IMG/VR virus record: IMGVR_UViG_3300044551_000092 | Coordinates: 64,001 to 128,000 of that record | Strand: one strand, 5' to 3' | Origin: a virus | Lineage: Duplodnaviria; Caudoviricetes | DNA length: 64,000 nucleotides | Shown here: one piece after another, positions 14,405 through 56,288 of the stretch | Position numbering within the stretch: position 1 is the first letter of the stretch | Layout of the letters: the number at the start of each line of letters is the position of its first letter | Translations under genes and position numbers: made by a program | Notes under the pieces: generated by a model | The model's input: only the letters and a program-made list of their open reading frames with translations | Told to the model about the DNA's origin: nothing | Databases searched by the model: none

Positions 14405-14425
14405 TTTTTGAAGGAGTTGAATGAA

Positions 14426-31393: not shown

Positions 31394-31432
31394 AGTTTAA
31401 AAATAGAAAATTAAATTGAGGTGAATACGTCT

Positions 31433-32191: not shown

Positions 32192-32207
32192 ATGCTTTCT
32201 AATTCTC

Positions 32208-32242
32208 AAGGGAATGGTAGATCACCTGCCATTCCTTTTTTT
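32208..32242 (+). terminator. intrinsic terminator after the tube gene
   Basis: aagggaatggtag-atcac-ctgccattcctt followed by a T-run. Confidence 0.75.
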
Positions 32243-32258
32243 AAAGGAGATCTTGTTG

Positions 32259-32906: not shown

Positions 32907-32921
32907 TAAGAAGGTGAAAGT

Positions 32922-33419
32922 ATGTTTCCGGACAATAAAGGGCTCAGACGCGTTAATACCACATATTCGGGGACAGATATGGTCTGTACATTAAATATGC
33001 CAAATGAAGGCCCGATTGTATTCGGCGAGCTTTCAAGTTTGTCTTATTCAATCTTTAGAGAAAAAGTTCCAATACGAGCCCTTGGTCATATCAGCATGAA
33101 AGGTTATACCCGTGGTGCACGAACGATTACCGGTGTTCTAAATTTTAATCTTTTTGATGAAAGTATTGTCTATCGATGTATGAAATCACTTAGGGATCAA
33201 GGCTATCGTATCATCATGGATGAAATGCCACTTTTTGACATTACGATTAGTTTGGCCAATGAATACGGCAGCCGATCGATGATGACGCTTTACGGCGTTT
33301 CCACTTATACCGAAGGAATGTCTATGTCGATTGATAATATTACCACGCATGATGTATTTGAATTTTATGCTTTGGATATAGATCCTATTTCCAAGATACG
33401 TCAAACAAAACGGAGATGA
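32922..33419 (+). CDS. tail tube-like protein 2
   Basis: YSGTDM..GELSSLSY..RGARTITG..FDITISLANEYG, paralogous to the 31433 protein. Confidence 0.7.
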   Translation: MFPDNKGLRRVNTTYSGTDMVCTLNMPNEGPIVFGELSSLSYSIFREKVPIRALGHISMKGYTRGARTITGVLNFNLFDESIVYRCMKSLRDQGYRIIMDEMPLFDITISLANEYGSRSMMTLYGVSTYTEGMSMSIDNITTHDVFEFYALDIDPISKIRQTKRR

Positions 33420-33426
33420 GTTTTAT

Positions 33427-34209
33427 ATGCGTCGTATGATGGGCAACCACAATAATGCATCGACTGGTTTTCATCCAAATCCGCAGTTTGATACGTATCG
33501 ACGCCAAGATACTCGCGTTGAATATCAGCTATTCTCAAACGATTATTTTTCAAATGCTGATGTACATCTTTATTTTGGGAATATTTTTGTCGATGACATC
33601 ATTTCGCTAAATTTTACGCTTGAAGAACAGGTCCGACCCATTTATGGCTATCACTCCTATACGTATGATGCGGTTGCTAGGGGAAATCGGATAATAAGGG
33701 GTGAGTTTTCGATTAATTTTACTTCTGTCGGTTACCTGCAAGAAATTATTGAGAATGCAGATGCCATCGAATTTGCCTTATCCGATAAAGCCAAAAAACT
33801 GCCTGATATAGATTTGAAACACACTGATTTAACGATTGAAGATATTCTAAAAATTTATGGCAAAGAATCGTTCAATGAAATTGCAGATGCTTATGAAAAA
33901 GAGATATGGGGCGATGATTCAAAGACGACGTATTTAACCCCGGGTGCCTCAACTTATTTTCAGAGAACAACGCCATTTGGTTTTGATATTAAAATAAATT
34001 ATGGGGCCGTCAGTCAAACACTTGGGGCTCAATATCAAGGATTCTATAATAAAGCCCCCGTTCATCCAAACATCACTGTAGACCGAATAAATGGTGTTCA
34101 ATTAACGGGACTGCAAAAAAATATGAGTACGAGTGACCAAGGCCGCCCTTTAACAGAAACTTATTCTTTTATTGCTCAAGATTTAAATGGCAAAAGTACA
34201 ATGTATTAA
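33427..34209 (+). CDS. tail tube-like protein 3
   Basis: FSNADV..PIYGY..RGNRIIRGEF..ETYSFIA. Confidence 0.62.
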   Translation: MRRMMGNHNNASTGFHPNPQFDTYRRQDTRVEYQLFSNDYFSNADVHLYFGNIFVDDIISLNFTLEEQVRPIYGYHSYTYDAVARGNRIIRGEFSINFTSVGYLQEIIENADAIEFALSDKAKKLPDIDLKHTDLTIEDILKIYGKESFNEIADAYEKEIWGDDSKTTYLTPGASTYFQRTTPFGFDIKINYGAVSQTLGAQYQGFYNKAPVHPNITVDRINGVQLTGLQKNMSTSDQGRPLTETYSFIAQDLNGKSTMY

Positions 34210-34255
34210 CGTATAATAATCTTTAGATAAACCTTTAGAAAAGAGGAAATTTAAA

Positions 34256-34684
34256 TTGAAAAAAGAAACCAAACCATTAGAAAATCATAATAAAAAAAGT
34301 AGTGAAGAAACAGAAAATAAACATCTCGGCTTATATACAGATGAAGAATGGACAACACCGGTTTTTGAAGGAGGTCCCACACGACAAGAAATCGAAGAAT
34401 GGAAGAAAAAATATATGGCTGTTTATTTCACACCATTTGAAAATGAAAAATTTATATGGCGTCCATTAAAACGGCCTGAATATCGACAACTGATAGAGCA
34501 AAAAGAAATGGGAATCATGGACCGAGAAGAAGCAATTATGCAAGCGGTCATTCTATTCCCGCGAGACTTTGATATTAAAGAATACATTGCTAAAGGCGGA
34601 CGTGCAGGCGTGCCTTCACTTATTGCTGACATGGTGATGGATAAGTCAGGATTCACCGCACAGTCTGCTCCGATTGAGTTGTGA
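34256..34684 (+). CDS. tail assembly chaperone
   Basis: IEEWKKKY..FIWRPLKRPEY..AGVPSLIADMVMDKSGF; lies before the tape-measure-like gene. Confidence 0.65.
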   Translation: MKKETKPLENHNKKSSEETENKHLGLYTDEEWTTPVFEGGPTRQEIEEWKKKYMAVYFTPFENEKFIWRPLKRPEYRQLIEQKEMGIMDREEAIMQAVILFPRDFDIKEYIAKGGRAGVPSLIADMVMDKSGFTAQSAPIEL

Positions 34685-34690
34685 TATGCT

Positions 34691-35503
34691 GTGAAAGGAC
34701 CGGCTAAACGAACGATCAATAGTTGGAAGAAGAAGTACGAACATATTTATAAAGTTATATTTGAAAACAAAAATAAGGATTACTCGCAACTGTTTATTTT
34801 CCGTGTTCCAGGTCGTGAAGAGTGGAAACAGATCACATTTATTTATCGTGAAAATCCAATGAAGCTTCAAGAAAAAATGTGTAGCGTCTGCACTTTGTAT
34901 CCTAAAAATTTTGATTTTGAAAATGGATTGGCTGGTTATGCCGAAGTCTTAAATAATATCATTCTTCGAATCGGTGGTTATCAGGAAGGGCAGGCGAAAG
35001 AGGCCCTTGATGCATTCCGTCAAGAACTTGAATTTCAAGATTATCAATCAGACTGCTTAATTCATGAAGCTTTTCCTGAATATTCGATTGAAGAAATTCA
35101 AAAATGGACCAATCTTAAATTGACTTACTATTTGTCTCGTGCTGAATTTATATTAAAACAGTTGCGCGGAGTTCAAATTATCATTGAGGGCTCAGAAGAA
35201 GCGAAACAGATTCAAGCACAGCAGCAACAGGGATCACAGCAAAAGACCTATCAACATAACTTTAAAATGAACGATGTAAACAGCCCGCTGCTTCATGCAA
35301 AAAAACCTCAAAAATCAAAGAAAAATCCTAAAGAACAGTCTCAAACGATACGTAATGAAGAAGACCTCTTGAAGAAACTTGCAGAAAATGAAGCGATACA
35401 CGGTCGCAAGATTGCTCCACCAAGTACTCATTTTGATGAACTAGATCGTCAGGAAGCAAATTATGATGTTATTCACGATCGTCTTAAAGGCGATTTTGAC
35501 TAG
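34691..35503 (+). CDS. tail assembly chaperone paralogue with a C-terminal extension
   Basis: INSWKKKY..FIFRVPGREEW..AGYAEVL..IGGY aligns with the preceding gene. Confidence 0.6.
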   Translation: MKGPAKRTINSWKKKYEHIYKVIFENKNKDYSQLFIFRVPGREEWKQITFIYRENPMKLQEKMCSVCTLYPKNFDFENGLAGYAEVLNNIILRIGGYQEGQAKEALDAFRQELEFQDYQSDCLIHEAFPEYSIEEIQKWTNLKLTYYLSRAEFILKQLRGVQIIIEGSEEAKQIQAQQQQGSQQKTYQHNFKMNDVNSPLLHAKKPQKSKKNPKEQSQTIRNEEDLLKKLAENEAIHGRKIAPPSTHFDELDRQEANYDVIHDRLKGDFD

Positions 35504-35518
35504 AAAGAGTGATAAGCA

Positions 35519-38500
35519 ATGGATGATCTGATGGAAATCGTGAAGCCTGAAAATTATCAGGATAATCAGCGGTCATCGAAATATTATTTATATAACGAAG
35601 ATGAACGTGCGGAAATGCCGGTCTATCAGAAAATCGCTCTTGGAGCTATCGCTGGCGCCGGTCTGCTTGCATTTGGTCATCGGACTGGTGCAGTACATAA
35701 AATTGCCCGCTTTTTAGATCGTGATATTCATATATCAGCCAAGGCATGGAGAAGCACGATTAATCAGGAAAGTGGTTTATCAAAAAATCTAAACTGGAAA
35801 CGGTTTGATCAAACACGCCAACACTTTCTCAATGAACGAAAAAGACTTCTTGCAGCTTACGACAAAGAGAAAAATCCATTGAATCGTCGAGAATTTGATA
35901 TTCAAAATTATTTAAATCAACGAGAGCGATTGATTGGGTCTGAAGTAAATGACGAATTTACTGGTGAGATGGCACATGTAATGAACGAAGACTATCGTCT
36001 CCGAGCCATCATGCAGGAGATTCGTCAAAATGAAAAAATCAGTTCAGCAATGGCTGATCGCATCCAGGTCGCTCTTGGCAAGGGCGGGGTTGACGATCTT
36101 CGATTACGCGACGATGAGCATATTCGTTTTTTGTTGAACAATCAAAAGATTAATGACCATAAGATTGTTGATTGGGTCAATGCTTCTCGTCATAAATATC
36201 AGAATATCGATTTTCTAAAGAACGAAGAGTTAAATCCAGGCGGTGCCAATTTTGTTCGACAGATGCAAGAAAAAATGCGTGATTTTACAGCACATCAACT
36301 TCAATATTACAATAAGAAAAATGGTTGGATTAAAAGCCGTATTATCGGACATAAACAAGCAACAGTCGGGGATATACTTGAACTTCACAGACGGGGCGTC
36401 GTAAATATTGACACGCATTTACGAGCACAGATTCACGATGCATTGAAATATAATAAAAAATTTAGAGATACTGTTTTTGATCGGAACTTGTATATTAAGA
36501 CGCGAGGCGGCAAGCCGGCCGGCCTCATGGATTACAATGCTTATCACCGGATTGGCCAGAAGACAATGGAGTGGTGGTCTCATACGCTCCCAGGTGGTTT
36601 GCTCCATCTTCGAGACTTTATTAACAGTCATGAAGCACGTGAACAAGCAGCTTTCCGAATTATGAAACGTGAATCCATTCAACCGATGCTCAACGCGCAA
36701 ATGGGTCTTGCCAATAAAAACCCCTTACATCAGCCTGTTGTTTTTGCGATGGGGCGGTTTGTCCGTCTTTTTGATGACGGGGCAGTAAATCATCACACGG
36801 CGCTCAATATCTTAAACAAGAAACGAGAAATGTATTTAACATCATCTCGATTTGGTACGCTTCCTAAAATTGTTCGGTCGGCAGCAGGGCTTGAAACAAA
36901 GGATAAACGGAGAAATCTTTTTACCGAAACCTTTGACCTATTTAATCAGGGTCGGGATGCGGATTCCGTTGAAATGCTTCGAATGTTTACGAAATATACC
37001 GACCCGACATGGGAAAGAAATGTTGTTCGACGAGTACTAAGCTATGGCATTAAAAACAATAAAGAATTCTATGATATTCGTAAATATTTTAATCGCTATA
37101 CTTCTGGCTATACTCCTCGGACGTTAAATCGGATGAAAAAAATAATGCCCCAATATATTCAGGATTATGTGGAGCAAAATCAACTTAATTTTGGCGACTC
37201 AGAGGACTTAAAGAAACTTTTTGGCTACATGGGGAAGCATGTTTCGCAAAAAGAAAACCCAGATTTTTACCGGTTTCATCAAGAATATCTGAGGAATCCA
37301 AATAATATTTTGTCCTATCACCGTTCGCTTGGCAATGATAATCCGATCATTGGTGGCAATCTCAAGATCCAAACTGGCGAAGATATTATTCGGCAACAGG
37401 TCAGCCGTGAAATAACCAGGCAGATCATTAACCGTAATGCAATCAAGCTCGGCGATAAGCGGGCTTCACAGGTTTTATTTCGCAAGAAATTGGAATCCAT
37501 GCGCTTAAACGATGAACTATTGAAAGGCGACTTGGACAAATCCATTCGCGCTTACAATCAATATCTGTTTGAGGAAGCGGGGGCTGAACATTTCCGCCAT
37601 CCACAATCAAGTTATAAAAAAATTAATGAGTTATTCACCGGTTCGGAGAACATTAGTCGCCAGTTTCAAAAAGACATGCATCAAATGTATCGACAGACAA
37701 ATCCAATTTGGGAAGAATACTCACCAATCAAAAAACCGAATCCGATCGGTGATGACTATTTGGCTGTCAATCGATCTTTTAAAACAAGTGATCTGTTAGG
37801 ACGTACAAAAGAATTTTTTACGGATATCGGCGATAAGGCCAAGCAGCTTGCGCTAACGACCGGCCGCCGAAACTTAGAAGATGTCACCACAATGTCCATC
37901 TTTGGTGGCTTTTATCCGGCATACCGATTACAGGAAGCGCTCGGGGCTGTCGGACTTGGCTTTTCAGATGAATCGCTCGGGTCACCGCTTTCTATCTGGT
38001 CTTCATTAATGCTTAAACGTATCCTTCCAATTTTTGGTGCGGTCGGCTTATATGGTTATGCCGATTATAAAATGCAACAGGATAGCGGGGCCGGCATTAC
38101 TGAACGATATGAGAACTATAAAGCAGATCGCCGAACCGAAGCAGCTCAAGCCCGTTATAAACTTGGACAGCAAGATAAATTAAAACACGAACTGCAACTG
38201 AAACCGGGTATCGATCAATTCAATGAGATGCCGAATGTTACATTGCCCATCATCGGAACCCGAGGCCCGGGAGACATTTTTAATACAATCGCTTCTCTGG
38301 TCTCCAGGACCCCTGTAACGGACTATCATAACGAAGATCGTATGAATGTCCAGGAGACAAAAGAAGACTTGACAAGCGGCGTTACACCCGTCAGAAAGGG
38401 CCGCTGGTGGGCCGCCGGATCACGAAGCGCTTATGTCGGCGATCGTATTCAGCAATTCAAACCGAATAGTTACCGATTAGCACATAGCGATTGGGAACAT

Positions 38501-41500
38501 TCCAACGTGACGGCTACGGGTGAAGAAAAATACAGCCATTCCTTTTTTCCGACAGCGGAAAACCCTCTTGGCTTTATCTCCTACTTAATCGGGACACGTG
38601 ATCCTTATTGGTATGAAAAGAAACACTATTTTGATCGGCCGTATCTCTTAACCGGTGATTTGTTTAATTCCAATACACCCTTTATCGGGGACATCGGCAA
38701 TATGACGATTGGTCAAGTCTTCAAACCAAGTCGTAAGATGCATGAAGACTATTGGGGGGATCCTGTACTAGTCCAAGAAGCAACTGATGAAGCAACGGAC
38801 CGTGATACAGAGAGGGGCGAGGGGTCGCTGGTGACTCGCGTTTCACCGTCCGGCCGCCGGGAAGAAGATGTTTTCAGTACACCTTCTGAATACGGCGCCC
38901 CGATGCAAGATTTTCCGCCGGCGGCTAAAGACAAAAAAGCGGCAAAAGATATTACCGACCGGGCCTATTATGTTGCGCAGATGAAGAATATTAGTACGGG
39001 TAAAGCTACGGGAGATGAGATCGTACGTGGCGTTGATTCCGGTCAAGTTGTCTTTATCCCGTCCCGTCAATCTGGGAATTATGCCTCTTATTCTCAGGCT
39101 TTTAAGGCGGCGGCAACAGCAGAGGCACAAAACCGAAAAATGAGGGAAAACCCACGTTCAAGAGAAATCAACAAGGATAAAATCATTTCAATGTATTATC
39201 CGGGACAAGAGCCAACCATGAAGCTCAAGCCTCGCGGTATCCATGATTTCGAATATCTTTATCAAAAAAGAGCGGATCATGATAAGCTGAGGCATCTTAA
39301 TGATCCTAATAATCTTAACTGGCGTCTGCAAAACTTGCAAAGTAATTGGTCAGAACCGGCCGGTATTTACAACTGGATTATCAATGATGAATTATTAAAA
39401 AACGATCCGTATCGCGATCAAAAAGTAATCGCAAAAGCTCATGACGCTTATGATTTCAACAGCCGTTTTTGGGATCAACAATATGGATCGCTCGGCGGAG
39501 AGCTTTCCGAAATAGGTCGTCGATTTATTCGTAAAGACAGCGGATTTATGGAGAAATATAACCCCATTCAAAATAGGATGCCTTCTTGGTTGCCCGGGTC
39601 GGATTATTTTCAAAATTTTCGAGAGGGAGACCCTTATACATTAATTCCGAATGGTGAATATCGTCTACCCGGGGAAGCGTATGAAAAACTTAATAAACTG
39701 CATCCAGACGAGACTGGACGATACGGAGCATTCGATAAATTTAAGATATTGGCTGATGTGGCTCCGTGGTCAAACGAGTATAACTTTTGGAAAGAGTACG
39801 TGAATGCTTTTACGACAGATAAAACATTAAGAAAACAATTTGCCGATATTAAACGGCAAGTATCTAAACGAAAAAAGAAATATGACTTTCAGCCCTATCA
39901 TTTTCGCAACACGGAACTGGAAAAACAACAAGTAACGGTTACGAAATTTCTTGACGACTATACTTTTCTCACCAAGGAGTTTGGCAATCAACCATTAAGA
40001 ATGGCTGGAATGGATGTCAGAGCAAAAGCTCCCGGAATTCTTCAGCAGTATTTCAAAACAGGCGATAAGATCACAATCGGTTTCAGTAAGGATCCAGTCT
40101 ATCAAAAAGCCAATGATACTTATGGGACGATGCATGTTGATGTCTTTGCGGGATTAAATAGTATTAACCAGCAAATTATCGCTCGCGGTCAAGCGAAAGA
40201 AAGTCCGAATGATTTCACACCGACGGGTGTCTGGGCTCGCTTCACACCTGAAGAAATTGCTCGCGGACACCGTTGGGAAAATGTCGCTCATTTTGAGTCA
40301 GCCTTAAATACAAAATTCCTTCACGTACGTTCCGCGGTAGAAGAATATGAGCGGGATCAGATTTATGGAAAAGACTGGTCTACATGGGAAAACTTTGGGA
40401 TCAGTGATTATTTAATACCAGCTGTCGAACGCATGATTGGAAATAGCAATCCATTAATGGCGACAATGAGCGGTGGACTAGTCGGTGGCTTTATTGGTCG
40501 TCTGTTTCTTGGCGGCGGCAAACGTACTAAAGCCGGATTAATTTTGGGGGCACTAACTGGTTTTGGTGCAAATATGTGGGGGAAATACTACGAGTATCGA
40601 ACCGGTAAGCGTTGGATCCCCAAACGTCGGCGGACTGAAAATGACATCAATGAATACTTTGATTTCTTAAAATACTTAAAATATCATGGACTTTATGAAG
40701 AAACCTCCCGTCGTGCGAAAAAGCAAGGTTATCATATTGACAAGATTTTGCAGAAGATCGATCAAAAGAAGCAAAGTACGAAAAAAGAACAACAAAAACT
40801 GATTGATGAAAAACGACGTCTATATATTCAGCAACCAAAGGATTTCGCTGAAAAAAGAAAAACAATTAACGCTAAGTTAAATAAGATCAGTGAAAATTGG
40901 AATATGGAACAATTACCGGATATTGTATCACAAACAATTTATTACAAAGATCAAATGGAAGCAACGTTATATGGGATGAACCCTAAAGGTGACTATTTGA
41001 ATTTAATGCGGGCACTTCCCTATAAAGATAAGTGGTTCTTTCAGGATTTTGCAAAAGCGGACTCAGAAGATCGAAAGAAAATCCTAAGTTTAATTCCCGA
41101 AAATGAGCGCCCCCTATATCTGAGTATTTGGGGGATGAAGCCTGATGAAAAGAAACCTGTTGCCTATTATCTCAAGAAATACAACATTCCTTCGGCAAAT
41201 TGGGCTGGATGGAGGCCAGATGTCAATCTGGAAGATGTTAAAGTCAAGGCAGTTAAAAATGCCGGACTTGATCTTAGTGATTTTAATTACTGGGATGATG
41301 ACTTGGCGGCTTCAAGATATGCGCCGGATATTAATTCACAAAATAACGTCTACAACCGTCCGGCGGCTTTTAAGGGTTATCATAACGTCGAACAGAATAT
41401 TCGAGAAATTATGGAGGGCTATAATCTGCGTAATGTACATGTAATCGCCAAACCCAGTCAAGGCGGGCTGACACAGGTAAATATTCAATATATGCAAGAT

Positions 41501-41554
41501 CGTAAAAAGGAAATTGAAAAAGAATTTAATTTAAATAGTCAAAATTACGTATAA
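35519..41554 (+). CDS. giant tape-measure/ejection-like protein (2011 aa) with a degenerate SNase-like domain
   Basis: Follows the chaperones; several Gly-rich hydrophobic segments; KFLDDYTF..LRMAGMD..DTYG..SINQQIIARG near 39930-40200. Confidence 0.55.
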   Translation: MDDLMEIVKPENYQDNQRSSKYYLYNEDERAEMPVYQKIALGAIAGAGLLAFGHRTGAVHKIARFLDRDIHISAKAWRSTINQESGLSKNLNWKRFDQTRQHFLNERKRLLAAYDKEKNPLNRREFDIQNYLNQRERLIGSEVNDEFTGEMAHVMNEDYRLRAIMQEIRQNEKISSAMADRIQVALGKGGVDDLRLRDDEHIRFLLNNQKINDHKIVDWVNASRHKYQNIDFLKNEELNPGGANFVRQMQEKMRDFTAHQLQYYNKKNGWIKSRIIGHKQATVGDILELHRRGVVNIDTHLRAQIHDALKYNKKFRDTVFDRNLYIKTRGGKPAGLMDYNAYHRIGQKTMEWWSHTLPGGLLHLRDFINSHEAREQAAFRIMKRESIQPMLNAQMGLANKNPLHQPVVFAMGRFVRLFDDGAVNHHTALNILNKKREMYLTSSRFGTLPKIVRSAAGLETKDKRRNLFTETFDLFNQGRDADSVEMLRMFTKYTDPTWERNVVRRVLSYGIKNNKEFYDIRKYFNRYTSGYTPRTLNRMKKIMPQYIQDYVEQNQLNFGDSEDLKKLFGYMGKHVSQKENPDFYRFHQEYLRNPNNILSYHRSLGNDNPIIGGNLKIQTGEDIIRQQVSREITRQIINRNAIKLGDKRASQVLFRKKLESMRLNDELLKGDLDKSIRAYNQYLFEEAGAEHFRHPQSSYKKINELFTGSENISRQFQKDMHQMYRQTNPIWEEYSPIKKPNPIGDDYLAVNRSFKTSDLLGRTKEFFTDIGDKAKQLALTTGRRNLEDVTTMSIFGGFYPAYRLQEALGAVGLGFSDESLGSPLSIWSSLMLKRILPIFGAVGLYGYADYKMQQDSGAGITERYENYKADRRTEAAQARYKLGQQDKLKHELQLKPGIDQFNEMPNVTLPIIGTRGPGDIFNTIASLVSRTPVTDYHNEDRMNVQETKEDLTSGVTPVRKGRWWAAGSRSAYVGDRIQQFKPNSYRLAHSDWEHSNVTATGEEKYSHSFFPTAENPLGFISYLIGTRDPYWYEKKHYFDRPYLLTGDLFNSNTPFIGDIGNMTIGQVFKPSRKMHEDYWGDPVLVQEATDEATDRDTERGEGSLVTRVSPSGRREEDVFSTPSEYGAPMQDFPPAAKDKKAAKDITDRAYYVAQMKNISTGKATGDEIVRGVDSGQVVFIPSRQSGNYASYSQAFKAAATAEAQNRKMRENPRSREINKDKIISMYYPGQEPTMKLKPRGIHDFEYLYQKRADHDKLRHLNDPNNLNWRLQNLQSNWSEPAGIYNWIINDELLKNDPYRDQKVIAKAHDAYDFNSRFWDQQYGSLGGELSEIGRRFIRKDSGFMEKYNPIQNRMPSWLPGSDYFQNFREGDPYTLIPNGEYRLPGEAYEKLNKLHPDETGRYGAFDKFKILADVAPWSNEYNFWKEYVNAFTTDKTLRKQFADIKRQVSKRKKKYDFQPYHFRNTELEKQQVTVTKFLDDYTFLTKEFGNQPLRMAGMDVRAKAPGILQQYFKTGDKITIGFSKDPVYQKANDTYGTMHVDVFAGLNSINQQIIARGQAKESPNDFTPTGVWARFTPEEIARGHRWENVAHFESALNTKFLHVRSAVEEYERDQIYGKDWSTWENFGISDYLIPAVERMIGNSNPLMATMSGGLVGGFIGRLFLGGGKRTKAGLILGALTGFGANMWGKYYEYRTGKRWIPKRRRTENDINEYFDFLKYLKYHGLYEETSRRAKKQGYHIDKILQKIDQKKQSTKKEQQKLIDEKRRLYIQQPKDFAEKRKTINAKLNKISENWNMEQLPDIVSQTIYYKDQMEATLYGMNPKGDYLNLMRALPYKDKWFFQDFAKADSEDRKKILSLIPENERPLYLSIWGMKPDEKKPVAYYLKKYNIPSANWAGWRPDVNLEDVKVKAVKNAGLDLSDFNYWDDDLAASRYAPDINSQNNVYNRPAAFKGYHNVEQNIREIMEGYNLRNVHVIAKPSQGGLTQVNIQYMQDRKKEIEKEFNLNSQNYV

Positions 41555-41569
41555 GGGGGCGCAGGATCA

Positions 41570-44500
41570 ATGGCTGAAGATAATCAATTCGAAATGAATC
41601 AATTGAGCCAAGAAATGGGTATTCCATTGGTGCGGCCCTCGGAGGGGCAATATCAGTGGGCGGCGTCCTTTCAACCTTTATATAAAACAAAAGCAACTAA
41701 CAATCAAGCTTATCAACAAAAGGTACAACGCATGGCACGTCTTATTTCCAATGAGAATGTGCAGAACTCGTTTAACGGGATGCCTATTTCGTTGAATGGA
41801 CACTATATCTATAAAAATCTTTCAACGCCCTACAACTACAATGCTCAGCAAAATATTAGAGATTTTCTAAAATTTAATCAGGCGGACAATTTTATGGCTT
41901 TTGATATAGAATCGATGGGCGATCCCGTAAATTTTGGTAAATTCGGTTTAACCGAAATCGCAGCGAATGAATTTACTCGGACAAATGGCGATATAAAATT
42001 GACACCGAATAGATTTTTCCGTCTGATTAATCCTGGTAAAGAAGTGCTCTATGATAGTGAAAGATTGATTCGCCAATTAGAAACAGATCCCTATGCGTTT
42101 CGTCGGATGAGCAATTATCAAAAAAGAAAACTAGTTGACTTGATGCGCTATTCGACTCTTCCTGAAAAAGGACAGGCGCCAGCGACATTTACTACAGAAA
42201 ACGATGTGGTTACCAACTTTAGACATAACTCCATTGCCTCAACATTTTTTGATAATGAGACTTTAAATGAAAATAAAGTAATTGCTGAAATGAATCGCGT
42301 GATTCCACATATGCGTTCTGGATTAAATATGCTTTCATCCAATCAGGCAATGAATTCTAAGAAAGCGTTGAGCCAATACAGTCAATTTGTCCGAAAGAAT
42401 CAAAATGTTTTTTTCCTTTCTCACAATGGAGCAAATTTTGATTTACCGGCCTTGCAAGCGGCCGCTCAAAAAGTCGGTGTAAGAATGGCACAACCCGCTA
42501 AACATCTTGATCTCTTGCAAACCATATCAACACTGTATCCAAATATTACGGATTTACATAGAGAACTTAATCCGAAATTTAACGGACGACTGCCAATGGG
42601 AGGTAGGAAGCTGCAGAGTCTGATTCAAACGCTTGGTTTGCAGGATACCGGTCTAGCCCATAGTGCAATGGACGATGAACAAGACATGGCAAGAGTGATG
42701 GCAAAGATTGGACCAGTCTTAAAAAATAAAATTGAAACCAGTAAAACGAAAATAAAAGAAGGATTTAATTATCATCCGACCGGTTTTTCATGGAATGACG
42801 AACCGTTGCGTGTGGGAGACCAACTTTTTGCGTCAGGTGGGGTAAAAGCATATTTGGATGGTGAATCTTCTTTTATGATGGAGGGGGACCGGCAGGGGCA
42901 TTACAAATTAAAGAATGATGGATTCAATACAACTTTTGTGAATGCCAAAACGTTTTATCAAGTGAAAGGCCTTCATGATTTATCTGATGAAAAGACAAGA
43001 CGTCTGGCACTGGAATTGTACGATAAAGAAAATGATCGAAAAGTTTTTATCAGTCGTGAGGGTGATCATGCATTCGACGAGATAGGTGCTTTTGTTCAAT
43101 CGCGTTTTTATAATTGGAGAGGCATCACACCGAATCAAAGACGGGAAATTGGACAAGCACATCTTCGTGATCAGGCTCGACGGCGTTATGAGAGCATGTT
43201 TAGCCTAGAGGGCGGTGGAACCGGTCTTACAAAAGGATTTGAAAGCGCAGAACGGCTATATGGAAATGCTGCGGTCTATGCCAAGCGTCTGGCCGGAAAG
43301 GAGAAAAATATCGAGCGCCGCGCCAGAGAACGGGCAAAAAAGAACGGAACAACCATAGCTGAAGAACGAAAAAAGCTGTTAACTCAGCGGATTACCCATG
43401 AAGAAATGTTACGGAGAATGGACTTTAACAGTCTACCGGTTAAGGATCCGACAACAGGCAAGCTGGCCACCGACGGCGCTGGTAATCTGATTAAAACGTT
43501 CAATCGCTCGGAACAGCAACAGTTCTTTAAAATGGCCCCCCGTCTTGTATCCGAGCTGCCGGTTTATGGTCCGGCAATTAATAAAATCAACCAGGTTTTT
43601 CAACCACAGATTGACCAGGCAGCAGGGGCTAAAGACTATAAGACTATTTTAAGACTTAAAAAGCAACGCGATGTTGCATGGAATCTCTATCATCAAAATG
43701 TCAAACAACAGCTAAAAAGTCAAGGACTGGATCACCTTGTCCCGACTGATCAAGTTGAACTGCCAGAATATGAGAATCGACGGATTCACTTTACTGATTA
43801 TGATAAGGGAATGAATACGCAGCGCTTACTGAATCTGGAAAGTGATCAATCCGCCCGGCAGTCGATTTACCGTTTTTTGAATCAAACCAAAAACACAGAA
43901 GAATCGGCAATACAGCACGCACGCAGGCAAAAAGAACGTCTCTATAAGATGGTCCGGTTTTTGGAAAGCGATAAGACGATCAAAGACGCTGGAGCCTACC
44001 GCTCAATTATTCAAAACACGGATTCAGTCAGTGACGCCGTCGATCAGTTTGTCTCTCGTCTGCGCAATAACGATGCGCTGCAAGAGACTACAAGGCAGCA
44101 GGTGTCACTAGCACGTAATGCTGCAGCGAGCCTTGTAAATCGTGATGCGCTTCGCATGAGGCTAAATAGCAGCATTCAGAAATCAAATCAGGTTTATGAT
44201 AATCTGTTTATTCCTCAACAGCCGGCCGGCACGCGGATTGCTTTCAATCGTGAAACAGAAGATCTATTTAAACGCCTTGATGAACGACATCCTGTAACTG
44301 GACTTGAACCGCATAACCGACAAGCAGTAGAAAGTTTGCTTGGCGATATTATGGAACGATATCCAAATATGCAAACGGCACTATCAATTGATCAGTCGAT
44401 CGGTAATGCCCGTATTTCGGTTTTTCGCCCTGAGGACAGTCGTAGTGTGACGGAACATCTAGCGGCTGGTACAAGCCATCCTAGAGCCTTAGAATTCGAG

Positions 44501-47500
44501 CTACCTTTGATAAATAGTCAAGGTACGCATGTAGTTGGTGGGAGGATTCTTAATGCACGGTCCTATCTTGATAAAACGTCTTCCGGCCAATTTCGCCTTT
44601 CCTCCTCATCAGAAATGATCGCCAATGCATATCGTCACAACTTGCCTAGTATCATGAAACGTTTACAGGACAACCAATTTGAAGAAGCCAATTATCGTTC
44701 GCGGCAAACACTAAATGACAGTATTAATGCTCTATCTGGTATCCAACGTACCGTTGACATAAATGAGAATGACAACGATGTTTTTCAGCATTCTCAGAAA
44801 GATATTACAAACCAGGCGCAAGTTGATGTACAGCGAGGAATGATTCGTGATTGGATTGATACTGGTAAACTAAATCCACGGGAGGACTTAGAATCCTCTG
44901 CATTCATCAACGGAAAGTTAAAACATAACTTGACCTTGAACGATGTGAAGTATAATCGGCAACAGGAATTGCTTCGAGAAATGGGCCGTTGGGCGAATGA
45001 AAATCGTGAACGCATCGGGGTGCCACTATATATCTCCGGCGTCAAAGACGTTCATGCAACCAGGGGAATTATGTCCCGCTTAGATGCTCGTGATTTTCAG
45101 CCATTCGGACATTTTGGGAATCAAGGCCGTCCTAATGCCATTCAGTTTACGAATGCTTTTCCCATCAATGAAGATGTACAAAAAAAACTGGATATGCAGA
45201 AATTCTATTATGCTTATGAAAGCAACGTAACGACGCCGACGGAAGATGCCATTAATGAGTTGTGGCGCAGTTTTCCAGAGAATGCGGGGAATTATAATAG
45301 CGTCAATTTGAAGTTTGGATTTATTGATAATCAGACGCTTTATAAACGGATGGAGGCGTTGCGTGAATCACATGCGGCTGATCTTCGAGAAATGGGAATA
45401 TTACAGGATGACGGTTCATGGAACCCGGCCACTTTTCCCCGAGTTTATGAGCAACAGGCGGCGATGGCCAACGAATTATTGGACAGTATGAGTTACACGG
45501 GGCATCAAATACTTAGCCATAATGAAGGATTTGAATTGGCAGAAGGACTAAGTGAAGGACAGATTGTAAAACCGGGCACCATTGTCGGCACAGAAATTCA
45601 GGAGGGGGTTCGAGTACCTGTTCGCTGGGAAAGGCCATATGAGGGGAGGCTGTCAATGCAAAATGGTCAGACTGCCGTCACTTATACTCGCCACCCCTAT
45701 AAATATATTCTCGAAGGAGAAAAGGTCACTCCATCGCCGGTTCCACAGAAACTGTTACAAATGATTACCGGAGACAAAGACATTGTCGGTCTTATTAATC
45801 CAAATATTCAAAAGCACCAGGATTTTAATTTGCTTTTATCCGGTCAATCACGGATCCTTGCGAATCATTTATCTGATCTTGAAAATCAAATTGATCAATC
45901 TCAAACTCAGCAGCAAGCAAAAAAATTATTGCAGCAAAAAAGGAATATCCTGCAAGCGATTAGGGAAAACAATATTCCACTGCAATGGGATGGCCAAGCA
46001 CGTCATTTCACAGACATATCAGCTTCAATGAGATCTGTAAATGGCGGTAAGTTAGAAATAAATAGCGATGCTTTGGATAAGGTTTTTGAGGCTGGTGGAA
46101 TAAGTCATGCTACAAAAGAAGGCATACAGTCGGGGATCTTAAAAACGATTATGTCTCACGTGGAAGACTATTCGAAAGCTGTTGATTATACGGGGCGACG
46201 GATCATCGGGCATGATGAGAACGGTCCGATTTATGGTAGTGAACGTGCGGGCTTTCGTGCCGGACATCGAGAGATGTGGTCGTTTAAACAGCAAGGGCTG
46301 AATCAAACTTATGATTTAGTGGCTCAAAACATGATTGATGAGGCAAAAGGCATGGATAGCTATGCCTTACACGCCCGTCCCAAACGTCGCTTAATATCCC
46401 GCTACGATGAGGCCCGCAATCTATTGAACACATTAAGTAATACGGTACATTCAACAGATTCCAGTATTTCGAAAACTGACGCACTTAGCATTGATAAATT
46501 TGAAAATTTACCGGTTGAGGAAAAAACACGCTTTGGTTATGCAGGAACCATTTTTGATCGTCAACGGATTCAGGAGTTCGGATTTTGGTTAAAGCTACCG
46601 ACAACCAAATTATCGAATGGACAAGAAATAAAACCGACAATAAATTTAAATGGTCCGGAAGCACCGCCTACTCCCGTCGATCGTATTTTTATGCCCTTTA
46701 CAAATCTTGAAGGAGCATCCGGCCAGATCCATCTGCGAAATTTACAACAACAGATGGCAGCAGTATATCGTCGAGCACAAGACGTAGAGAAGCAGACCAG
46801 CATTTCTGCCCGTCAAAAAGCGGGAGAAGGTCTGCAACGGTCCATCAATAATTATTTCGACAATATTATTTATCAGGCATCGGCTTCAAAAGGTTTAATT
46901 GGTGATACCTTAACAACTCGGTTGAGCAATACCTTCACGGGACGTACAAAAGTCATCGATCCTAGAATTTCTCGTCAGATGAATGGCGATTATGCGATGA
47001 TTTCTGAACAGCGAGCAAAAGACCTTGGAATTTATGACCGATTGAAAGCTGGACAAGCTGTTTATGGGATGCATACACGTTACCCGACATTTCATACTCA
47101 CGCATCGCAAATAGCAAAAATTAAAATGGACCCACATATCAACGATCAAAATATCCATCTAAATTCACTATTAGCCGATTTAACAGGAGCCGATAGCGAT
47201 GGAGATGTAGGCCATCTATGGGTTGCACGTGATGCAAAGGGGCATATCTATGATCATATTCAACATGAGTGGGCAAACCGCTATAAACAAGATCAAGAAT
47301 ACAGAGAACAACTTTGGCAACAACATCTTGCTGATTTTGAAAAAGAAAATCCACATGCATTAGATCAGCTTGCCGGAGATAAGATTGTTGCCAGCTCACC
47401 GAATAATGATGCTGAAGTCATGGCTCGCATCGGCAAACGTTATATCGGTGAAGCTTCCAATCTTGGGTTAGCCATGCGTGCCGCTTCTGAACAATATCTC

Positions 47501-48520
47501 AATAATCAACCGGGGGCTTTACAGGCCATTCGAAATTTTACTCAGGCTTTAGAACAGAAACCTATCTCATCAAAACACATGAAAGAAGCCCCCGAACGTT
47601 TAGTTCCAGCCGCAGAACTTATTTCTGCAGTTCGAAGTCAGGACTTTGATCGAGCACGGGCCATCGACGAAGTGTATTACGGTGGTGAATTTGCGGGAAA
47701 ACATTCCATGAATGAAGCCTTTGAAGCAATGAATCAGATTAACAACCGATTTAATCTAACAGATTCAGCTTTTAAAGTAGGGACCAGTCGAGGCATACGC
47801 CCCGAAAAAGGTTTGCGTCAAGCCTATAATGTTTTATCGGGTAATGGATCAGAAGGAAATTTACAAACAAACAGTCAATTGGAACTAACGCGTCATCTTT
47901 TAGAAAATCAACCGCGTGTTCGCATTTCTCCTAAAGAAGCAATGATGCGTGATCAGATGTATGATAATTCAAGTGGCCTAACAGACCGTGTGCGGCCAGA
48001 ATTGCGTAAAGGCCTAGGAGGGGCTGCGGCGGATACAATCGAAGATTTAACAGGTAACACTAAGGGTGTTTCACAACCTTTAGGTAAACAAACAGAAAAT
48101 CTATTCAATAAACTAAAAACAAGTCCGAAATTTAGAAAAGGCGCTTTTCTAAGTGCTCTTGCTCTTGGTGGGCTGGCAGGTTACAATATTCTTAGACATA
48201 ATCAACCGATTGATATGGAAGAAGCGGAGCAGGGAGATGGCCATTTTATGCCTGCTCCAGCCCCGGAAAGCCCCATTACTTCTAATTTTCAAGAACCTGA
48301 AACACAAAATGCAGATATTACTGTGTTCGCAACTGGACATAAAAATCAGCCACAAATGTTAAGCCAAATGGCGGCACAAGGGATCCAAGAATCATACATG
48401 AATCCTTCTCATACGAACTTTAACGTCCATGTTCAGGATAACTCTTCAAAATTAAGTCGTTTCTGGTATCGAGATCAGGTACAGAAAAATATAGATAATA
48501 AAGTTCAAGACAATGATTAA
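41570..48520 (+). CDS. putative single-chain two-barrel (beta+beta') virion RNA polymerase fused to a DEDDh exonuclease (2316 aa)
   Basis: FDIES, HNGANFD, HSAMDD; then FQPFGHFGNQGRPNA, EGEK..IVGLINP, GFRAGHREMW, FTGRTKVI, RYPTFH, GADSDGD. Confidence 0.78.
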   Translation: MAEDNQFEMNQLSQEMGIPLVRPSEGQYQWAASFQPLYKTKATNNQAYQQKVQRMARLISNENVQNSFNGMPISLNGHYIYKNLSTPYNYNAQQNIRDFLKFNQADNFMAFDIESMGDPVNFGKFGLTEIAANEFTRTNGDIKLTPNRFFRLINPGKEVLYDSERLIRQLETDPYAFRRMSNYQKRKLVDLMRYSTLPEKGQAPATFTTENDVVTNFRHNSIASTFFDNETLNENKVIAEMNRVIPHMRSGLNMLSSNQAMNSKKALSQYSQFVRKNQNVFFLSHNGANFDLPALQAAAQKVGVRMAQPAKHLDLLQTISTLYPNITDLHRELNPKFNGRLPMGGRKLQSLIQTLGLQDTGLAHSAMDDEQDMARVMAKIGPVLKNKIETSKTKIKEGFNYHPTGFSWNDEPLRVGDQLFASGGVKAYLDGESSFMMEGDRQGHYKLKNDGFNTTFVNAKTFYQVKGLHDLSDEKTRRLALELYDKENDRKVFISREGDHAFDEIGAFVQSRFYNWRGITPNQRREIGQAHLRDQARRRYESMFSLEGGGTGLTKGFESAERLYGNAAVYAKRLAGKEKNIERRARERAKKNGTTIAEERKKLLTQRITHEEMLRRMDFNSLPVKDPTTGKLATDGAGNLIKTFNRSEQQQFFKMAPRLVSELPVYGPAINKINQVFQPQIDQAAGAKDYKTILRLKKQRDVAWNLYHQNVKQQLKSQGLDHLVPTDQVELPEYENRRIHFTDYDKGMNTQRLLNLESDQSARQSIYRFLNQTKNTEESAIQHARRQKERLYKMVRFLESDKTIKDAGAYRSIIQNTDSVSDAVDQFVSRLRNNDALQETTRQQVSLARNAAASLVNRDALRMRLNSSIQKSNQVYDNLFIPQQPAGTRIAFNRETEDLFKRLDERHPVTGLEPHNRQAVESLLGDIMERYPNMQTALSIDQSIGNARISVFRPEDSRSVTEHLAAGTSHPRALEFELPLINSQGTHVVGGRILNARSYLDKTSSGQFRLSSSSEMIANAYRHNLPSIMKRLQDNQFEEANYRSRQTLNDSINALSGIQRTVDINENDNDVFQHSQKDITNQAQVDVQRGMIRDWIDTGKLNPREDLESSAFINGKLKHNLTLNDVKYNRQQELLREMGRWANENRERIGVPLYISGVKDVHATRGIMSRLDARDFQPFGHFGNQGRPNAIQFTNAFPINEDVQKKLDMQKFYYAYESNVTTPTEDAINELWRSFPENAGNYNSVNLKFGFIDNQTLYKRMEALRESHAADLREMGILQDDGSWNPATFPRVYEQQAAMANELLDSMSYTGHQILSHNEGFELAEGLSEGQIVKPGTIVGTEIQEGVRVPVRWERPYEGRLSMQNGQTAVTYTRHPYKYILEGEKVTPSPVPQKLLQMITGDKDIVGLINPNIQKHQDFNLLLSGQSRILANHLSDLENQIDQSQTQQQAKKLLQQKRNILQAIRENNIPLQWDGQARHFTDISASMRSVNGGKLEINSDALDKVFEAGGISHATKEGIQSGILKTIMSHVEDYSKAVDYTGRRIIGHDENGPIYGSERAGFRAGHREMWSFKQQGLNQTYDLVAQNMIDEAKGMDSYALHARPKRRLISRYDEARNLLNTLSNTVHSTDSSISKTDALSIDKFENLPVEEKTRFGYAGTIFDRQRIQEFGFWLKLPTTKLSNGQEIKPTINLNGPEAPPTPVDRIFMPFTNLEGASGQIHLRNLQQQMAAVYRRAQDVEKQTSISARQKAGEGLQRSINNYFDNIIYQASASKGLIGDTLTTRLSNTFTGRTKVIDPRISRQMNGDYAMISEQRAKDLGIYDRLKAGQAVYGMHTRYPTFHTHASQIAKIKMDPHINDQNIHLNSLLADLTGADSDGDVGHLWVARDAKGHIYDHIQHEWANRYKQDQEYREQLWQQHLADFEKENPHALDQLAGDKIVASSPNNDAEVMARIGKRYIGEASNLGLAMRAASEQYLNNQPGALQAIRNFTQALEQKPISSKHMKEAPERLVPAAELISAVRSQDFDRARAIDEVYYGGEFAGKHSMNEAFEAMNQINNRFNLTDSAFKVGTSRGIRPEKGLRQAYNVLSGNGSEGNLQTNSQLELTRHLLENQPRVRISPKEAMMRDQMYDNSSGLTDRVRPELRKGLGGAAADTIEDLTGNTKGVSQPLGKQTENLFNKLKTSPKFRKGAFLSALALGGLAGYNILRHNQPIDMEEAEQGDGHFMPAPAPESPITSNFQEPETQNADITVFATGHKNQPQMLSQMAAQGIQESYMNPSHTNFNVHVQDNSSKLSRFWYRDQVQKNIDNKVQDND

Positions 48521-48535
48521 AGGGTGTGCTTATTC

Positions 48536-51500
48536 ATGGCAGTTTCAGTGCCGACTCTGGATGATCGTGACTTCCTATATGGAGAACTGCCAGAGCATCA
48601 TCTCAGAATCGGAGATAGTCAATTTCTAATTCCTCCGACTTCAATCCAAGTTAATCAGACTATGAAGACTGAGAAGATTACGATGTTGCGTTCAAGGGGG
48701 AGCCTGCCGGTTCAATCCGGATATAGTGAGCAATTCATCACTATATCATTGTTTTTCCCTAACGAAGATGCAATTAACTATGAAATGCGTCCTCTCCTTG
48801 CGCAGATGAAAAAATGTCCTTTTCTACCAATAGAGAATACTTATTTAAACAATGTCTATAAGATTAATGCTATTGTAATTAATGATGTCACCGCACAAAC
48901 AAATCCTGGTTTTCCTGGAACGATGACCTTGCTTGTACAGATGTTTGCATTTGACCCGGCAACGTATATCTATGGAAGCAGTGATAAAGACTTTAATGAT
49001 ATGTTCAACTGGCCTTTGTTTCGCTGGTATTATGAACAAAACCTGATACCGCAAACTGACCAACGACATGCCACTTACTATGAGCCATTGACAGAACCAT
49101 TAAATGACAGTTTTTTCTTCAAAATAGCTTCTGAAGATGACCTGATTGCGATGCGGCAATGGCGATTAAAAAAAACAAAATTGATTCAAGACTGGGCTCA
49201 GCAAAATAAAAGCTGGAGTTTTAGTGATTTCTTTGGATTTCTAAAAGGAAAAGTTGGCCAGATTTTTGGGCATTCCTATAAATCAGAAGAAGAACAGTTC
49301 GATGATGATTTAGATAATCTTTATCACAATGCAATGTTTGATTACGATATAAGTTATGAGCCGTGGCCAACCGGTGATCTTATTTTAACGGATCTGGCAG
49401 TGTCTTTTGAAAATCATCTTTCAACAATGCAGCTTGAAATGGATGAAAATCCGACCTATCAATATTTGGGATCCGGAGACGTAACAATTATTGCAAGCTT
49501 TGAAGCCAGCGACGAAGAATCCTTAGCCAGTCTGCAGAATCTAATTGATCGCGGGAACTATTATCTACGGACCTATCGAGAAGAAATGTTGACCGGAGCG
49601 ATTGAATTTGACTGCCAGCTTGCTCGGTTATTCGGAATCAAAAATGTTGTTATCAGCAATATGGTTGTTGATACAGTGGAAAATCAACCCGGGGTTTATT
49701 CGGTCAAACTGACCATGTACGGCTATAACCGAATTGCTAAAAAAATGAATGAAGTCCGTGCAATGACTCTCGGCCTAGAATGGAGTAATGGCGGTACAAA
49801 TGCATTAAAGTATATCATTCCATTTGTGGGTCCGGTATTATTCGGCGCTGATCGCCCCTTCTTTAAAGTTTTCACCAACTATATGAAGGATGTTGGCGAT
49901 GATATAAAAGTGACAAAAGATGGCGTACAACTAGCCATCTACCAATCTGCTGTATTAGAAACTTTTAAAATGGCCGAAGTGTATCCGGATCTGGAGTTGC
50001 CAACCTATGATGAAGTTGAAGCAGCCGGTTTTTCAATTAAAAACTTGAATGACGGCATCTTTGTAGATCCGGATTTCTTTTTAGTCTATGATGACATCGA
50101 AGATTATGCCAGACAGGTAGACACCGTATTCAAGACGGGTGGAGATAAGTTTGGCCTTCGTTTGGAAGATATGACAGGAAACAATGCTTCTGTAGATGGG
50201 ACAAAAATAAAGCCGGCTAAAGACGATAAAAAGAAGAAAAGTACAGGGCTCAAATCATCGCCGCCCAAAGAAACAAAGTTGGATACCAAAAATAATTCAA
50301 CTGATCAGAATGAAAAACTTTTACGCCAGGCTGCCAAAAAATATGGCATTTCGGATAAATTTATTGTCGGCTTTGCAACTTCTTTCGATCCGAAGCTCAG
50401 GCAGTATTACGACAAGGGTGCCAATCCTGACTTTAATTATTTATACTCTTCTCAAGAGACCTCAACGATCACTCAAAAGCAGGATTTAAAATATACAATT
50501 GGTCAAGAGGGCGCTGATTATTATTATGGTGTAATGCGAGTACGTCCGACACTGGGCTATTCCGTCCTGCTTGAAAAACGCACGGATTATAATATCGATC
50601 AAGGCACGCGGGCGATGGCGGTCTCTATCGCACATTTAAGAGCCGGATATGATGATAAAAATGATTATCACTATGAGCATTTAGCGAATGCTTTTGATTT
50701 AGACTTATCCTCAAAAGAGGATGCTAGTTTGTGTGAATTCATGGGCGGTGTAATGATTTATTTAGGTTATGAACGAGAACTAGCAGAACTATTAAAGAAT
50801 AATCGTCAACTTAGTAGTCAGCTTTCGGGTATGTTAAAAGATATGGTTTCAACGATCAAGAAAACGGATGGCGGGACCTCTAAAACGGATCTAATTAAAT
50901 TACCTGTTAAAGATTATAAAAATATCTCCGATTATAAAGCTCCATCTACACTAGTAGCAGGAACTCAAATAAACGAAGATGATTTTGGAGATTTAGAATC
51001 CTCTACAATTAAGGCCAGCATGTGTCATGATACGATATTATATGATCATCGTGGGCGACTGGTTCGTGCATTCCCTTCCTTTTTTATCGCCTTTATTGAC
51101 GAGGGGCGGTATGTTGGAACGTCCAGGATGTCAGACCAGTTCTTTCAATATCGCGGGGTTACTTCGATTGAATATGATTATACGAGAAAAAGTGCTGCGA
51201 ATACCTTATTTTTAACGATGAGCAATGTCTACGGATCACTGTCAGATTCAGAAAAAGCGCAGGATTTAACTTATTCGAGTACGTGGGATGTTTTTCAATC
51301 ATTGATAAACCCGGCGTCTGCCGCCGACCAGCTTGAGCGAAGCCGGCACCGTGATCCAAATTACTATAAAACAATTATGTTGACGACCGGCACACGGGTT
51401 CATTTCAGGATGGGTTATGGTTCAAATATTCAAATGATGCCAACGATCATCAACGGGACGATTACATCAATTGAAAACAAAATGGAAACTCTTCACGTAG

Positions 51501-56273: not shown

Positions 56274-56288
56274 AAGAGGTGAGGAACT

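Follow-up and report, generated by a model that had tools for sequence, protein, structure and literature searches.

What does a predicted 3'-5' exonuclease do at the N-terminus of an RNA polymerase that is encoded among the tail genes of a phage? The question is raised by the gene for a 2316-amino-acid (aa) protein in a stretch of 64,000 nucleotides (nt), henceforth the window, which comprises bases 64001-128000 of the IMG/VR virus record IMGVR_UViG_3300044551_000092. The source record, 206,290 bp in length and rated complete by CheckV, is that of a 206-kb Bacillus-type jumbo phage. The protein is specified by one unbroken open reading frame (ORF) on the + strand (41570-48520; positions are those of the window unless stated otherwise, and all features of the chain lie on this strand), 7-8 nt 5' of whose start lies a Bacillus-type ribosome-binding site, AAGGGGG. 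From its N- to its C-terminus, the chain comprises the exonuclease, a middle region of ~730 residues, a β-like half and a β'-like half of an RNA polymerase core, a Gly/Ala-rich hydrophobic segment and a conserved C-terminal tail. We can say with high confidence that a family of ~2,100-2,700-aa exonuclease-RNA polymerase proteins has, as a constant module at the N-terminus, a predicted intact DnaQ-type DEDDh exonuclease. As the best overall explanation of this architecture, we propose an injected tail-slot fusion whose nuclease trims the 3' ends of the entering phage DNA, a reading to which we would assign a probability of roughly 0.45.

Architecture of the fusion protein

A sequence-only reading of the window had placed an intact DEDDh exonuclease, with all its catalytic residues and a long insert between Exo I and Exo II, at 41880-42700. 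All three motifs indeed lie within that interval, with the folded domain being slightly larger (aa ~95-395; 41852-42754), and translation puts the catalytic residues D112/E114, D291 and H364/D369 exactly at the sites claimed for them. The Exo I motif AFDIES (aa 110-115; 41897-41914) provides the DxE signature as D112-I-E114. The Exo II motif SHNGANFD (aa 284-291; 42419-42442), which aligns with Exo II of the Pfu DNA polymerase, provides Nx3[F/Y]D as N286-GAN-F290-D291, and the Exo III motif AHSAMDD (aa 363-369; 42656-42676) provides Hx4D as H364-SAMD-D369, i.e., it is of the 'h' and not the 'y' type. Strand β2 bears the motif LTEIAAN with E129 (41948-41968), which we take to be the 'xEIa' signature of ε/PolC-type exonucleases, and an HLDLL motif (42503-42517) bears D314, a residue outside the DEDDh catalytic set. 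Across the exonuclease domains of 53 full-length homologs, which are 18-39% identical to the query, D112, E114, E129, D291 and D314 are invariant, while G117, L191, Y194, G251, N286, H364 and D369 are retained in at least 90%; all five catalytic residues are likewise present in four homologs of 2292-2683 aa with 25-36% identity.

The insert of the sequence-only reading is delimited by hhalign, which aligns the domain to a stand-alone protein of the RNase_T family (PF00929; probability 96.6%, E 5.7e-10) that is missing these ~75 residues (aa ~176-250; 42095-42319). It is modeled by AlphaFold2 (AF2) as helices and a β-hairpin and has conserved positions of its own, namely MRYS (aa 192-195) and HN (aa 219-220), with L191 and Y194 being among the residues listed above. 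The AF2 model of aa 85-400 (predicted local distance difference test, pLDDT, 85.5; predicted template modeling score 0.84) adopts the RNase H-like α/β fold of the DnaQ type, as that reading had supposed: the best PDB matches by Foldseek are RNase T, TREX1/2, CRN-4, a DnaQ domain and the PolC exonuclease (E 4e-5, probability 1.00). By VIA-align, the Z scores are 14.9 for E. coli ExoI (186 residues, 3.1 Å), 14.3 for Pol III ε (164 residues, 2.4 Å), 13.5 for PolC, and 12.5-13.2 for 3'hExo, the DinG exonuclease, ERI2/3, Cap18, TREX and RNase T. Thus, the domain shares its fold with ExoI, Pol III ε, PolC, TREX1/2 and RNase T (Z 12.5-14.9; root-mean-square deviation 2.4-4.4 Å over 164-193 residues), and it has in common with these DnaQ-like DEDDh enzymes the three Exo motifs, a histidine as the fifth residue and the 'xEIa' motif of strand 2. 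It differs from the known DnaQ-like enzymes in the insert with its own conserved residues and in always being fused to an RNA polymerase within the family.

The profile search that had been suggested as a check gave a divided answer. The 2316-aa protein alone stays below every Pfam cut-off (RNase_H_2 at 20.4-21.7 bits against a cut-off of 22, with no RNase_T match), has sub-threshold matches or none in Pfam, PHROGs, NCBIfam and PADLOC, and retrieves nothing from the PDB by phmmer. The family, by contrast, is recognized both by the hhalign match and by Pfam, with 18 of the 53 members matching RNase_T (best 7.7e-9) and 20 matching RNase_H_2. A profile of the 53 sequences against the PDB recovers the proofreading domain of PolB (1.6e-8), the PolC exonuclease (1.4e-7) and DnaQ (4.8e-6), followed by TREX-like proteins (6e-6) and ExoI (4e-4); RNase T attains just 3e-3 to 0.15, and no other RNase is among the matches listed. 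Together, these results confirm that the domain belongs to the DEDDh (DnaQ-like) superfamily and that its insert is specific to the present family.

The remaining chain had been read as a putative two-barrel RNA polymerase, and both halves of such an enzyme can be delineated in it. The β-like half (aa 1130-1594; 44957-46351), which features the motif GHREMW, aligns over 376 residues with E. coli β 542-1299 (VIA Z 16.6), and in the aligned region it presents the two basic residues of a β-type barrel, K1378 and K1385. The former occurs in at least 90% of 59 sequences, and the latter in at least 80% of 65 giants and in all five of the closest homologs. The β'-like half (aa 1595-2060; 46352-47749) shows the RxPxxH and DxDxD motifs of a β'-type barrel in the expected order, as R1837-YPTF-H1842 (RYPTFH, 47078-47095) and D1875-S-D1877-G-D1879 (the metal-binding ADSDGD, 47189-47206); R1837, P1839, D1875, D1877, D1879 and K2002 are invariant in the 59 sequences. 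When a profile of these sequences (aa 1130-2060) was run against the PDB, it matched RNA polymerase β' chains only, viz., phiKZ gp55 (2e-6) and B. subtilis β' (5e-6), and then those of Thermus, Pol V, African swine fever virus and archaeal Rpo1N, the match falling at RYPTFH...ADSDGD, aligned with the β' motif NADFDGD. The AF2 model of the core (pLDDT 91.3) has at least 500 Foldseek matches at E <= 0.001, and every match listed is Rpb2/β or Rpb1/β', in keeping with the overall β/β' fold seen by VIA (Z about 16). The matches listed comprise only cellular-type β/β' or phage multisubunit enzymes, with no gp96 chain among them. Hence, taking the two assignments jointly, we regard it as very probable that the protein combines the exonuclease with a C-terminal half predicted, from these models and profiles, to be a single-chain β+β' two-barrel RNA polymerase.

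The tail-module setting and the family

The fusion gene lies downstream of a portal gene (10812-13064) and a tail sheath gene (28550-31393; PHROG 16991, E 1e-165), and it occupies the position of a tape measure in a succession of the sheath, small genes, three giant genes, and baseplate-like and fiber genes. It is the middle one of the three giants. The first, of 2011 aa (35519-41554, +), is the positional equivalent of gp145 of Bacillus phage 0305phi8-36 and is kept in related loci; the third, of 2102 aa (48524-54832, +), has a Lysozyme_like domain (Pfam PF13702, E 1.7e-28) and is the positional equivalent of the baseplate hub gp147 of the same phage. A comparison of sheath proteins places Moorella phage MTATph1 and 0305phi8-36 itself closest among cultured phages. 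The latter has gp145, gp146 (a 'hypothetical tape measure' and the positional counterpart of the fusion) and gp147 in the slot, and mass spectrometry is on record as having detected each of them in the virion. The same synteny recurs in eight related loci, one from Alicyclobacillus shizuokensis and the others from ~190-229-kb IMG/VR records, several of them from isolate genomes, with a giant of ~1,950-1,995 aa, a fusion of 2,260-2,348 aa (the homologs at large measure 2127-2729 aa) and a third giant. The fusion gene is in the tape-measure slot also in the phages vB_BceM_WH1 and vB_BauM_KLEB27-3. Hence, with the identities of its two modules included in the judgment, we consider it very likely that this gene occupies the tape-measure slot of the tail module in 0305phi8-36-like jumbo myoviruses of the Bacillota. 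Because of this location, the protein is most likely, by analogy, a component of the particle that is ejected into the cell before the DNA or along with it.

To delimit the family, the profile of the exonuclease domain was searched against 1.84 billion representative proteins (representatives at 50% identity), which yielded 79 representatives at E <= 0.001, of which 47 also reach E <= 1e-10. Almost all of the 79 are 2,100-2,730 aa long with the domain near the N-terminus, and the short ones mostly look like 5' fragments of giants. Scored with our own exonuclease and polymerase hidden Markov models (HMMs), 68 of 69 proteins longer than 2,000 aa among the relatives gathered here have both modules. 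Thus the fusion, whose retention in homologs the sequence-only reading had named as a point to be checked, is an obligatory hallmark of the family. Proteins of 490-1,967 aa yielded no nuclease-free core, in a weak search that scored only the 8,000 candidates sharing most words. The family ranges over phages and prophages of roughly 200 kb whose hosts are Bacillus, Parageobacillus, Alicyclobacillus and uncultured organisms, the named members being hypothetical proteins of Parageobacillus galactosidasius and Bacillus licheniformis. Deposited genomes label its genes 'structural protein' or 'tape measure', and Pfam, NCBIfam and PHROGs name neither module.

With the whole protein as the query, tblastn retrieved none of 50,697 phage records, and the cultured members were reached thereafter through the tail sheath and our HMMs. 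They are gp095 of Bacillus phage vB_BceM_WH1 (2515 aa; locus coordinates 29863-37410; polymerase HMM E 8e-105, exonuclease HMM E 3e-12; motifs FDIEN, NINTYD, THMALQD and DHDGD) and gp034 of Bacillus phage vB_BauM_KLEB27-3 (2434 aa; locus coordinates 30865-38169; polymerase HMM E 1.7e-150, exonuclease HMM E 2.5e-21; motifs YDTEI, NVHNFD, AHFGLSD and DYDGD). Their deposited labels, 'virion structural protein' and 'structural protein', respectively, are annotation only, and we found no publication with data behind them. Since Pfam PF05183 detects no YonO-like polymerase in either genome, the fusion protein may be the only recognizable phage RNA polymerase of WH1 and KLEB27-3. With two cultured phages carrying the family, the question of what the nuclease does is now open to experiment.

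A related exonuclease occurs in a different context in MTATph1. Its tape-measure-slot giant CDS0027 (OR602862.1; 1309 aa; locus 11513-15442) has an unannotated DEDDh exonuclease domain at aa ~850-1065, as indicated by our HMM (6.5e-8), by Pfam RNase_T, whose cut-off of 24 bits is just exceeded at 24.2, and by hhalign (80%); no polymerase is detectable in this protein.

Candidate roles of the exonuclease

We favor the processing of DNA ends because four lines of evidence point toward it: the sequence profile, the top fold scores, the MTATph1 protein and the probable orientation of the N-terminus. The 53-sequence profile prefers DNA exonucleases over RNases in the PDB, and ExoI and ε have the highest fold scores by VIA. 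As the MTATph1 giant has the exonuclease with no detectable polymerase, the nuclease can serve an ejected tail protein by itself. Tape measures of the lambda type have their C-terminus at the tail tip and their N-terminus toward the head and the DNA end; if the present protein is laid in the tail in a similar manner, its N-terminus, with the nuclease, would face the DNA end. Accepting these pointers, we tentatively name the DNA 3' ends of the entering genome as the target of the nuclease. Mechanistically, D112, E114, D291 and D369 would hold two divalent metal ions and H364 would act as the general base, with nucleotides being taken singly from a free 3'-OH end. The few injected copies would act in cis on the 3' end or ends of the entering genome, and trimming could bare single strands in terminal repeats, such that the ends could anneal and the genome circularize or concatemerize; a trimmed end might also be a poor entry site for AddAB/RecBCD, and trimming might ready the terminus for the attached polymerase. 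Were this so, the processing of incoming DNA ends would constitute a new first step of infection.

Several considerations weigh against this proposal. The activity, the substrate and the presence in the virion of every family member are themselves predictions. The RNA-acting DEDDh folds nearly tie with the DNA-acting ones, with Z 13.2 for 3'hExo, 13.0-13.1 for ERI2/ERI3 and 12.5 for RNase T. The 3'-5' exonucleases fused to polymerases of the Pol A, B and C families proofread the product of their own polymerase, which is therefore an argument for an RNA substrate here. The MTATph1 CDS0027 gene is directly followed by a transposase, and it may be an interrupted or damaged relic. In 0305phi8-36, gp146 is without a detectable polymerase or a clear exonuclease, and the true tape measure could be either of two giants in the slot. 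One end-directed scheme we rejected: 3'-5' resection that creates a template for inward transcription would remove the very strand that the inward-moving polymerase copies.

It is possible, if on the unlikely side, that the exonuclease and the polymerase constitute one machine, engaged either in transcript editing and rescue or in terminus processing coupled to an end-dependent, promoter-independent first transcription, a mode which would be without known parallel in any two-barrel RNA polymerase. The first of these alternatives by itself, i.e., proofreading of the nascent transcript or rescue from arrest, appears somewhat less probable still. The nuclease would remove misincorporated or backtracked nucleotides in place of Gre/TFIIS-type factors, much as the coronavirus nsp14 ExoN, a DEDDh exonuclease, works with the nsp12 RNA polymerase. 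Along with the RNA-acting folds and the Pol A/B/C precedents noted above, such a role would suit the obligatory nature of the fusion across the family and the equally strict conservation of both active sites; moreover, a few injected molecules that must finish the first transcripts would profit from a means of rescuing stalled ones. Yet two-barrel polymerases cut RNA in their own active center, and backtracked RNA is buried in the secondary channel, while here ~730 residues lie between the exonuclease and the core. The lean of the profile matches toward DNA exonucleases and the polymerase-free domain of MTATph1 also speak against editing. The coronavirus model itself is a distant one: nsp12 is a palm-type, RNA-templated enzyme, nsp14 is a separate protein, and no sequence or structure match to them was seen here. 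Further, the virion polymerases of N4, crAss-like phages and P23-45 manage without an exonuclease (PMC10770324). If transcript editing nevertheless proved true, no cell-type RNA polymerase before this one would have had a nuclease dedicated to proofreading, and the view that such enzymes proofread solely through their own active center would change.

The nuclease could alternatively be an independent injected effector, following the logic of 'polyvalent proteins', that attacks host DNA ends and nicks or the small RNAs or DNAs of immunity systems, uncoupled from the polymerase. This we deem improbable, despite several precedents for such cargo: the N4-like virion polymerases are fused to peptidase, lysozyme, ADP-ribosyltransferase and predicted RNase domains (PMC5512222), AR9-type virion polymerases have a nuclease-like HD domain (PMC7598289), and MTATph1 again shows the domain without a polymerase. 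The defense-associated DEDDh enzymes Cap18 and Cas2-DEDDh are also among the structural or sequence matches. However, the order and position of the modules are fixed in 68 of the 69 giants, unlike the shuffled arrangements typical of polyvalent proteins, PADLOC gives no match, and a handful of molecules per cell would be little for bulk degradation.

Two further readings are highly doubtful. In one, the polymerase would make or extend DNA, with the exonuclease as its classical proofreader, akin to a viral counterpart of the archaeal PolD. In the PDB, the nuclease is closest in sequence to the proofreading domains of DNA polymerases, PolD, with a separate exonuclease subunit, demonstrates that the two-barrel fold can make DNA (PMC7281927), and Pfam RNase_T finds no ε-type proofreader elsewhere in the phage genome. 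Nevertheless, the top matches of the core are all RNA polymerase β/β' with PolD not among the matches listed, the phage has its own Pol III α, and the gene is part of the virion rather than the replication module. In the other, the domain would be a structural or DNA-end-holding module that no longer cuts; nothing speaks for this directly, beyond the thought that the ejected protein could use a pocket for 3' ends as a tether for DNA, and the retention of all five catalytic residues across sequences that are 18-39% identical would be unexpected for a purely structural role.

Least likely among the functions initially suggested is an RNase T-like maturation of the 3' ends of phage tRNAs or non-coding RNAs: the RNase T fold is among the matches and the window has at least seven phage tRNAs, but RNase T is a weak match in sequence, the domain is tied to a late-expressed tail-module giant with few copies per virion, and the hosts own tRNA-trimming enzymes. 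The seven tRNA genes (Leu, Asn, Asp, Gln, Pro, Thr and Tyr; 646-2408, + strand) are clustered where the leftward gene block meets the rightward one.

Related polymerases and further features of the chain and genome

To our knowledge, injected RNA polymerases are known just from the N4, crAss-like, phiKZ/AR9 and P23-45 groups, none with a known 3'-5' exonuclease; the present family, probably injected as well, has an intact one as an obligatory module throughout. The assertion of the sequence-only reading that no two-barrel RNA polymerase was known to carry a DnaQ-type domain has survived a full-text literature search, in which no published exonuclease on such an enzyme was found; the pairing of a DnaQ-type exonuclease with a two-barrel tail-slot RNA polymerase is described in no paper that we found. 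Surveys of two-barrel polymerases and jumbo phages present YonO-like, NCgl1702-like and multisubunit enzymes and no fusion to a DEDD nuclease (PMC2919709, PMC7824862, PMC7281927, PMC5512222).

The closest known parallel is with Thermus phage P23-45. Experiments on this phage (Chaban et al. 2024, PMC10770324) showed that its tape-measure-fused gp96 transcribes the pre-early genes, one of which encodes the non-virion polymerase gp64. Like gp96, the present protein is a single-chain two-barrel RNA polymerase within a giant protein of the tape-measure slot, with a hydrophobic segment C-terminal to the polymerase. Both phages also pair a virion (here, a probable virion) with a non-virion two-barrel enzyme, gp96 and gp64 in the one, and the fusion and a YonO-like ORF of the PF05183 family in the other. 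In contrast, the polymerase of gp96 is N-terminal and has no nuclease, and the paper on it does not mention an exonuclease (PMC10770324); here, the exonuclease is followed by ~730 aa and then the polymerase, in a contractile-tailed jumbo phage rather than a siphovirus. Since the core described here resembles the cellular β/β' rather than the YonO/QDE-1/gp96 group, its location in the tail slot probably arose independently of that of gp96.

The nearest precedent that we found for a nuclease-like domain on such an enzyme comes from Bacillus jumbo phages of another kind, namely AR9, PBS1 and vB_BpuM_BpSp, in which the virion RNA polymerase carries an HD domain (PMC7598289). Both cases thus present a nuclease- or phosphohydrolase-type domain at the N-terminus of part of a cell-type RNA polymerase that is carried in the virion, or probably so in the present case, by a Bacillus jumbo phage; they differ in that the domain is DEDDh and not HD, the polymerase is a single chain and not multisubunit, and the lineage is unrelated to the phiKZ/AR9 group. 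A further possible counterpart, cited after Iyer et al. 2003 in PMC2919709 and PMC7824862, is the β::β' fusion NCgl1702, a protein of 2,169 aa from a Corynebacterium glutamicum mobile element. As these two papers describe it, it is very much alike in size, and alike in a single-chain core with β preceding β', in its mobile-element origin and in otherwise having no relatives that can be recognized; they do not mention a nuclease domain for it.

The other parts of the fusion chain have fewer recognizable features. The middle region (aa 400-1129; 42767-44956) is marked out by conservation among the homologs, with motifs such as D534-ARRRY, and it has no match in Pfam or NCBIfam and, with aa 396-1135 searched, no meaningful one in Atlas or by profile in the PDB. 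The Gly/Ala-rich hydrophobic segment near the C-terminus (aa 2191-2208; 48140-48193) is a possible membrane segment, as suggested by hydropathy values of at least 1.5 in the homologs at the same place, though the present copy falls under the threshold. The last ~34 residues (48455-48520) bear a faint, non-significant likeness (hhalign E 0.35) to the C-terminus of 0305phi8-36 gp146, the stretch compared being 21115-21216 of the extracted 0305phi8-36 locus. This likeness may reflect a shared tail-tip anchor; Hardies et al. reportedly noted in 2007 that the alignment of gp146 with its prophage counterparts is confined to its last 60 residues. We considered gp146 itself as a homolog of the fusion and rejected it, as beyond this C-terminal likeness it shows nothing more than the motif DIET at aa 1223 (E 0.013 among 8 sequences). 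In the neighboring 2102-aa giant, the Lysozyme_like domain is located at aa 1787-1920 (53882-54283), and there is a weak match to DUF6046 too, which fits a wall-degrading baseplate hub like gp147 of 0305phi8-36.

Outside the window, the phage encodes its YonO-like polymerase in a 1158-aa ORF of the YonO/RdRP family PF05183 (E 9.8e-13, above cut-off; record 55527-56495, - strand), and 0305phi8-36 orf99 belongs to the same family (1246-aa ORF, E 1.1e-20). Thus, the phage has two predicted two-barrel polymerases, of which the fusion belongs to the virion module and the YonO-like enzyme does not. Its Pol III α is likewise outside the window (1216-aa ORF; DNA_pol3_alpha, E 3.7e-83; record 169050-169814, + strand), and neither a Pol A nor a Pol B was found in the phage genome. 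Finally, the record contains a 302-bp direct repeat, with one copy at 7711-8012 and the other at 205989-206290, i.e., at the end of the record. The two copies are identical over 60 bp and then 98.8% identical over 242 bp, and the sequences to their left are unrelated; they could be attachment sites or mark a terminal-repeat boundary.

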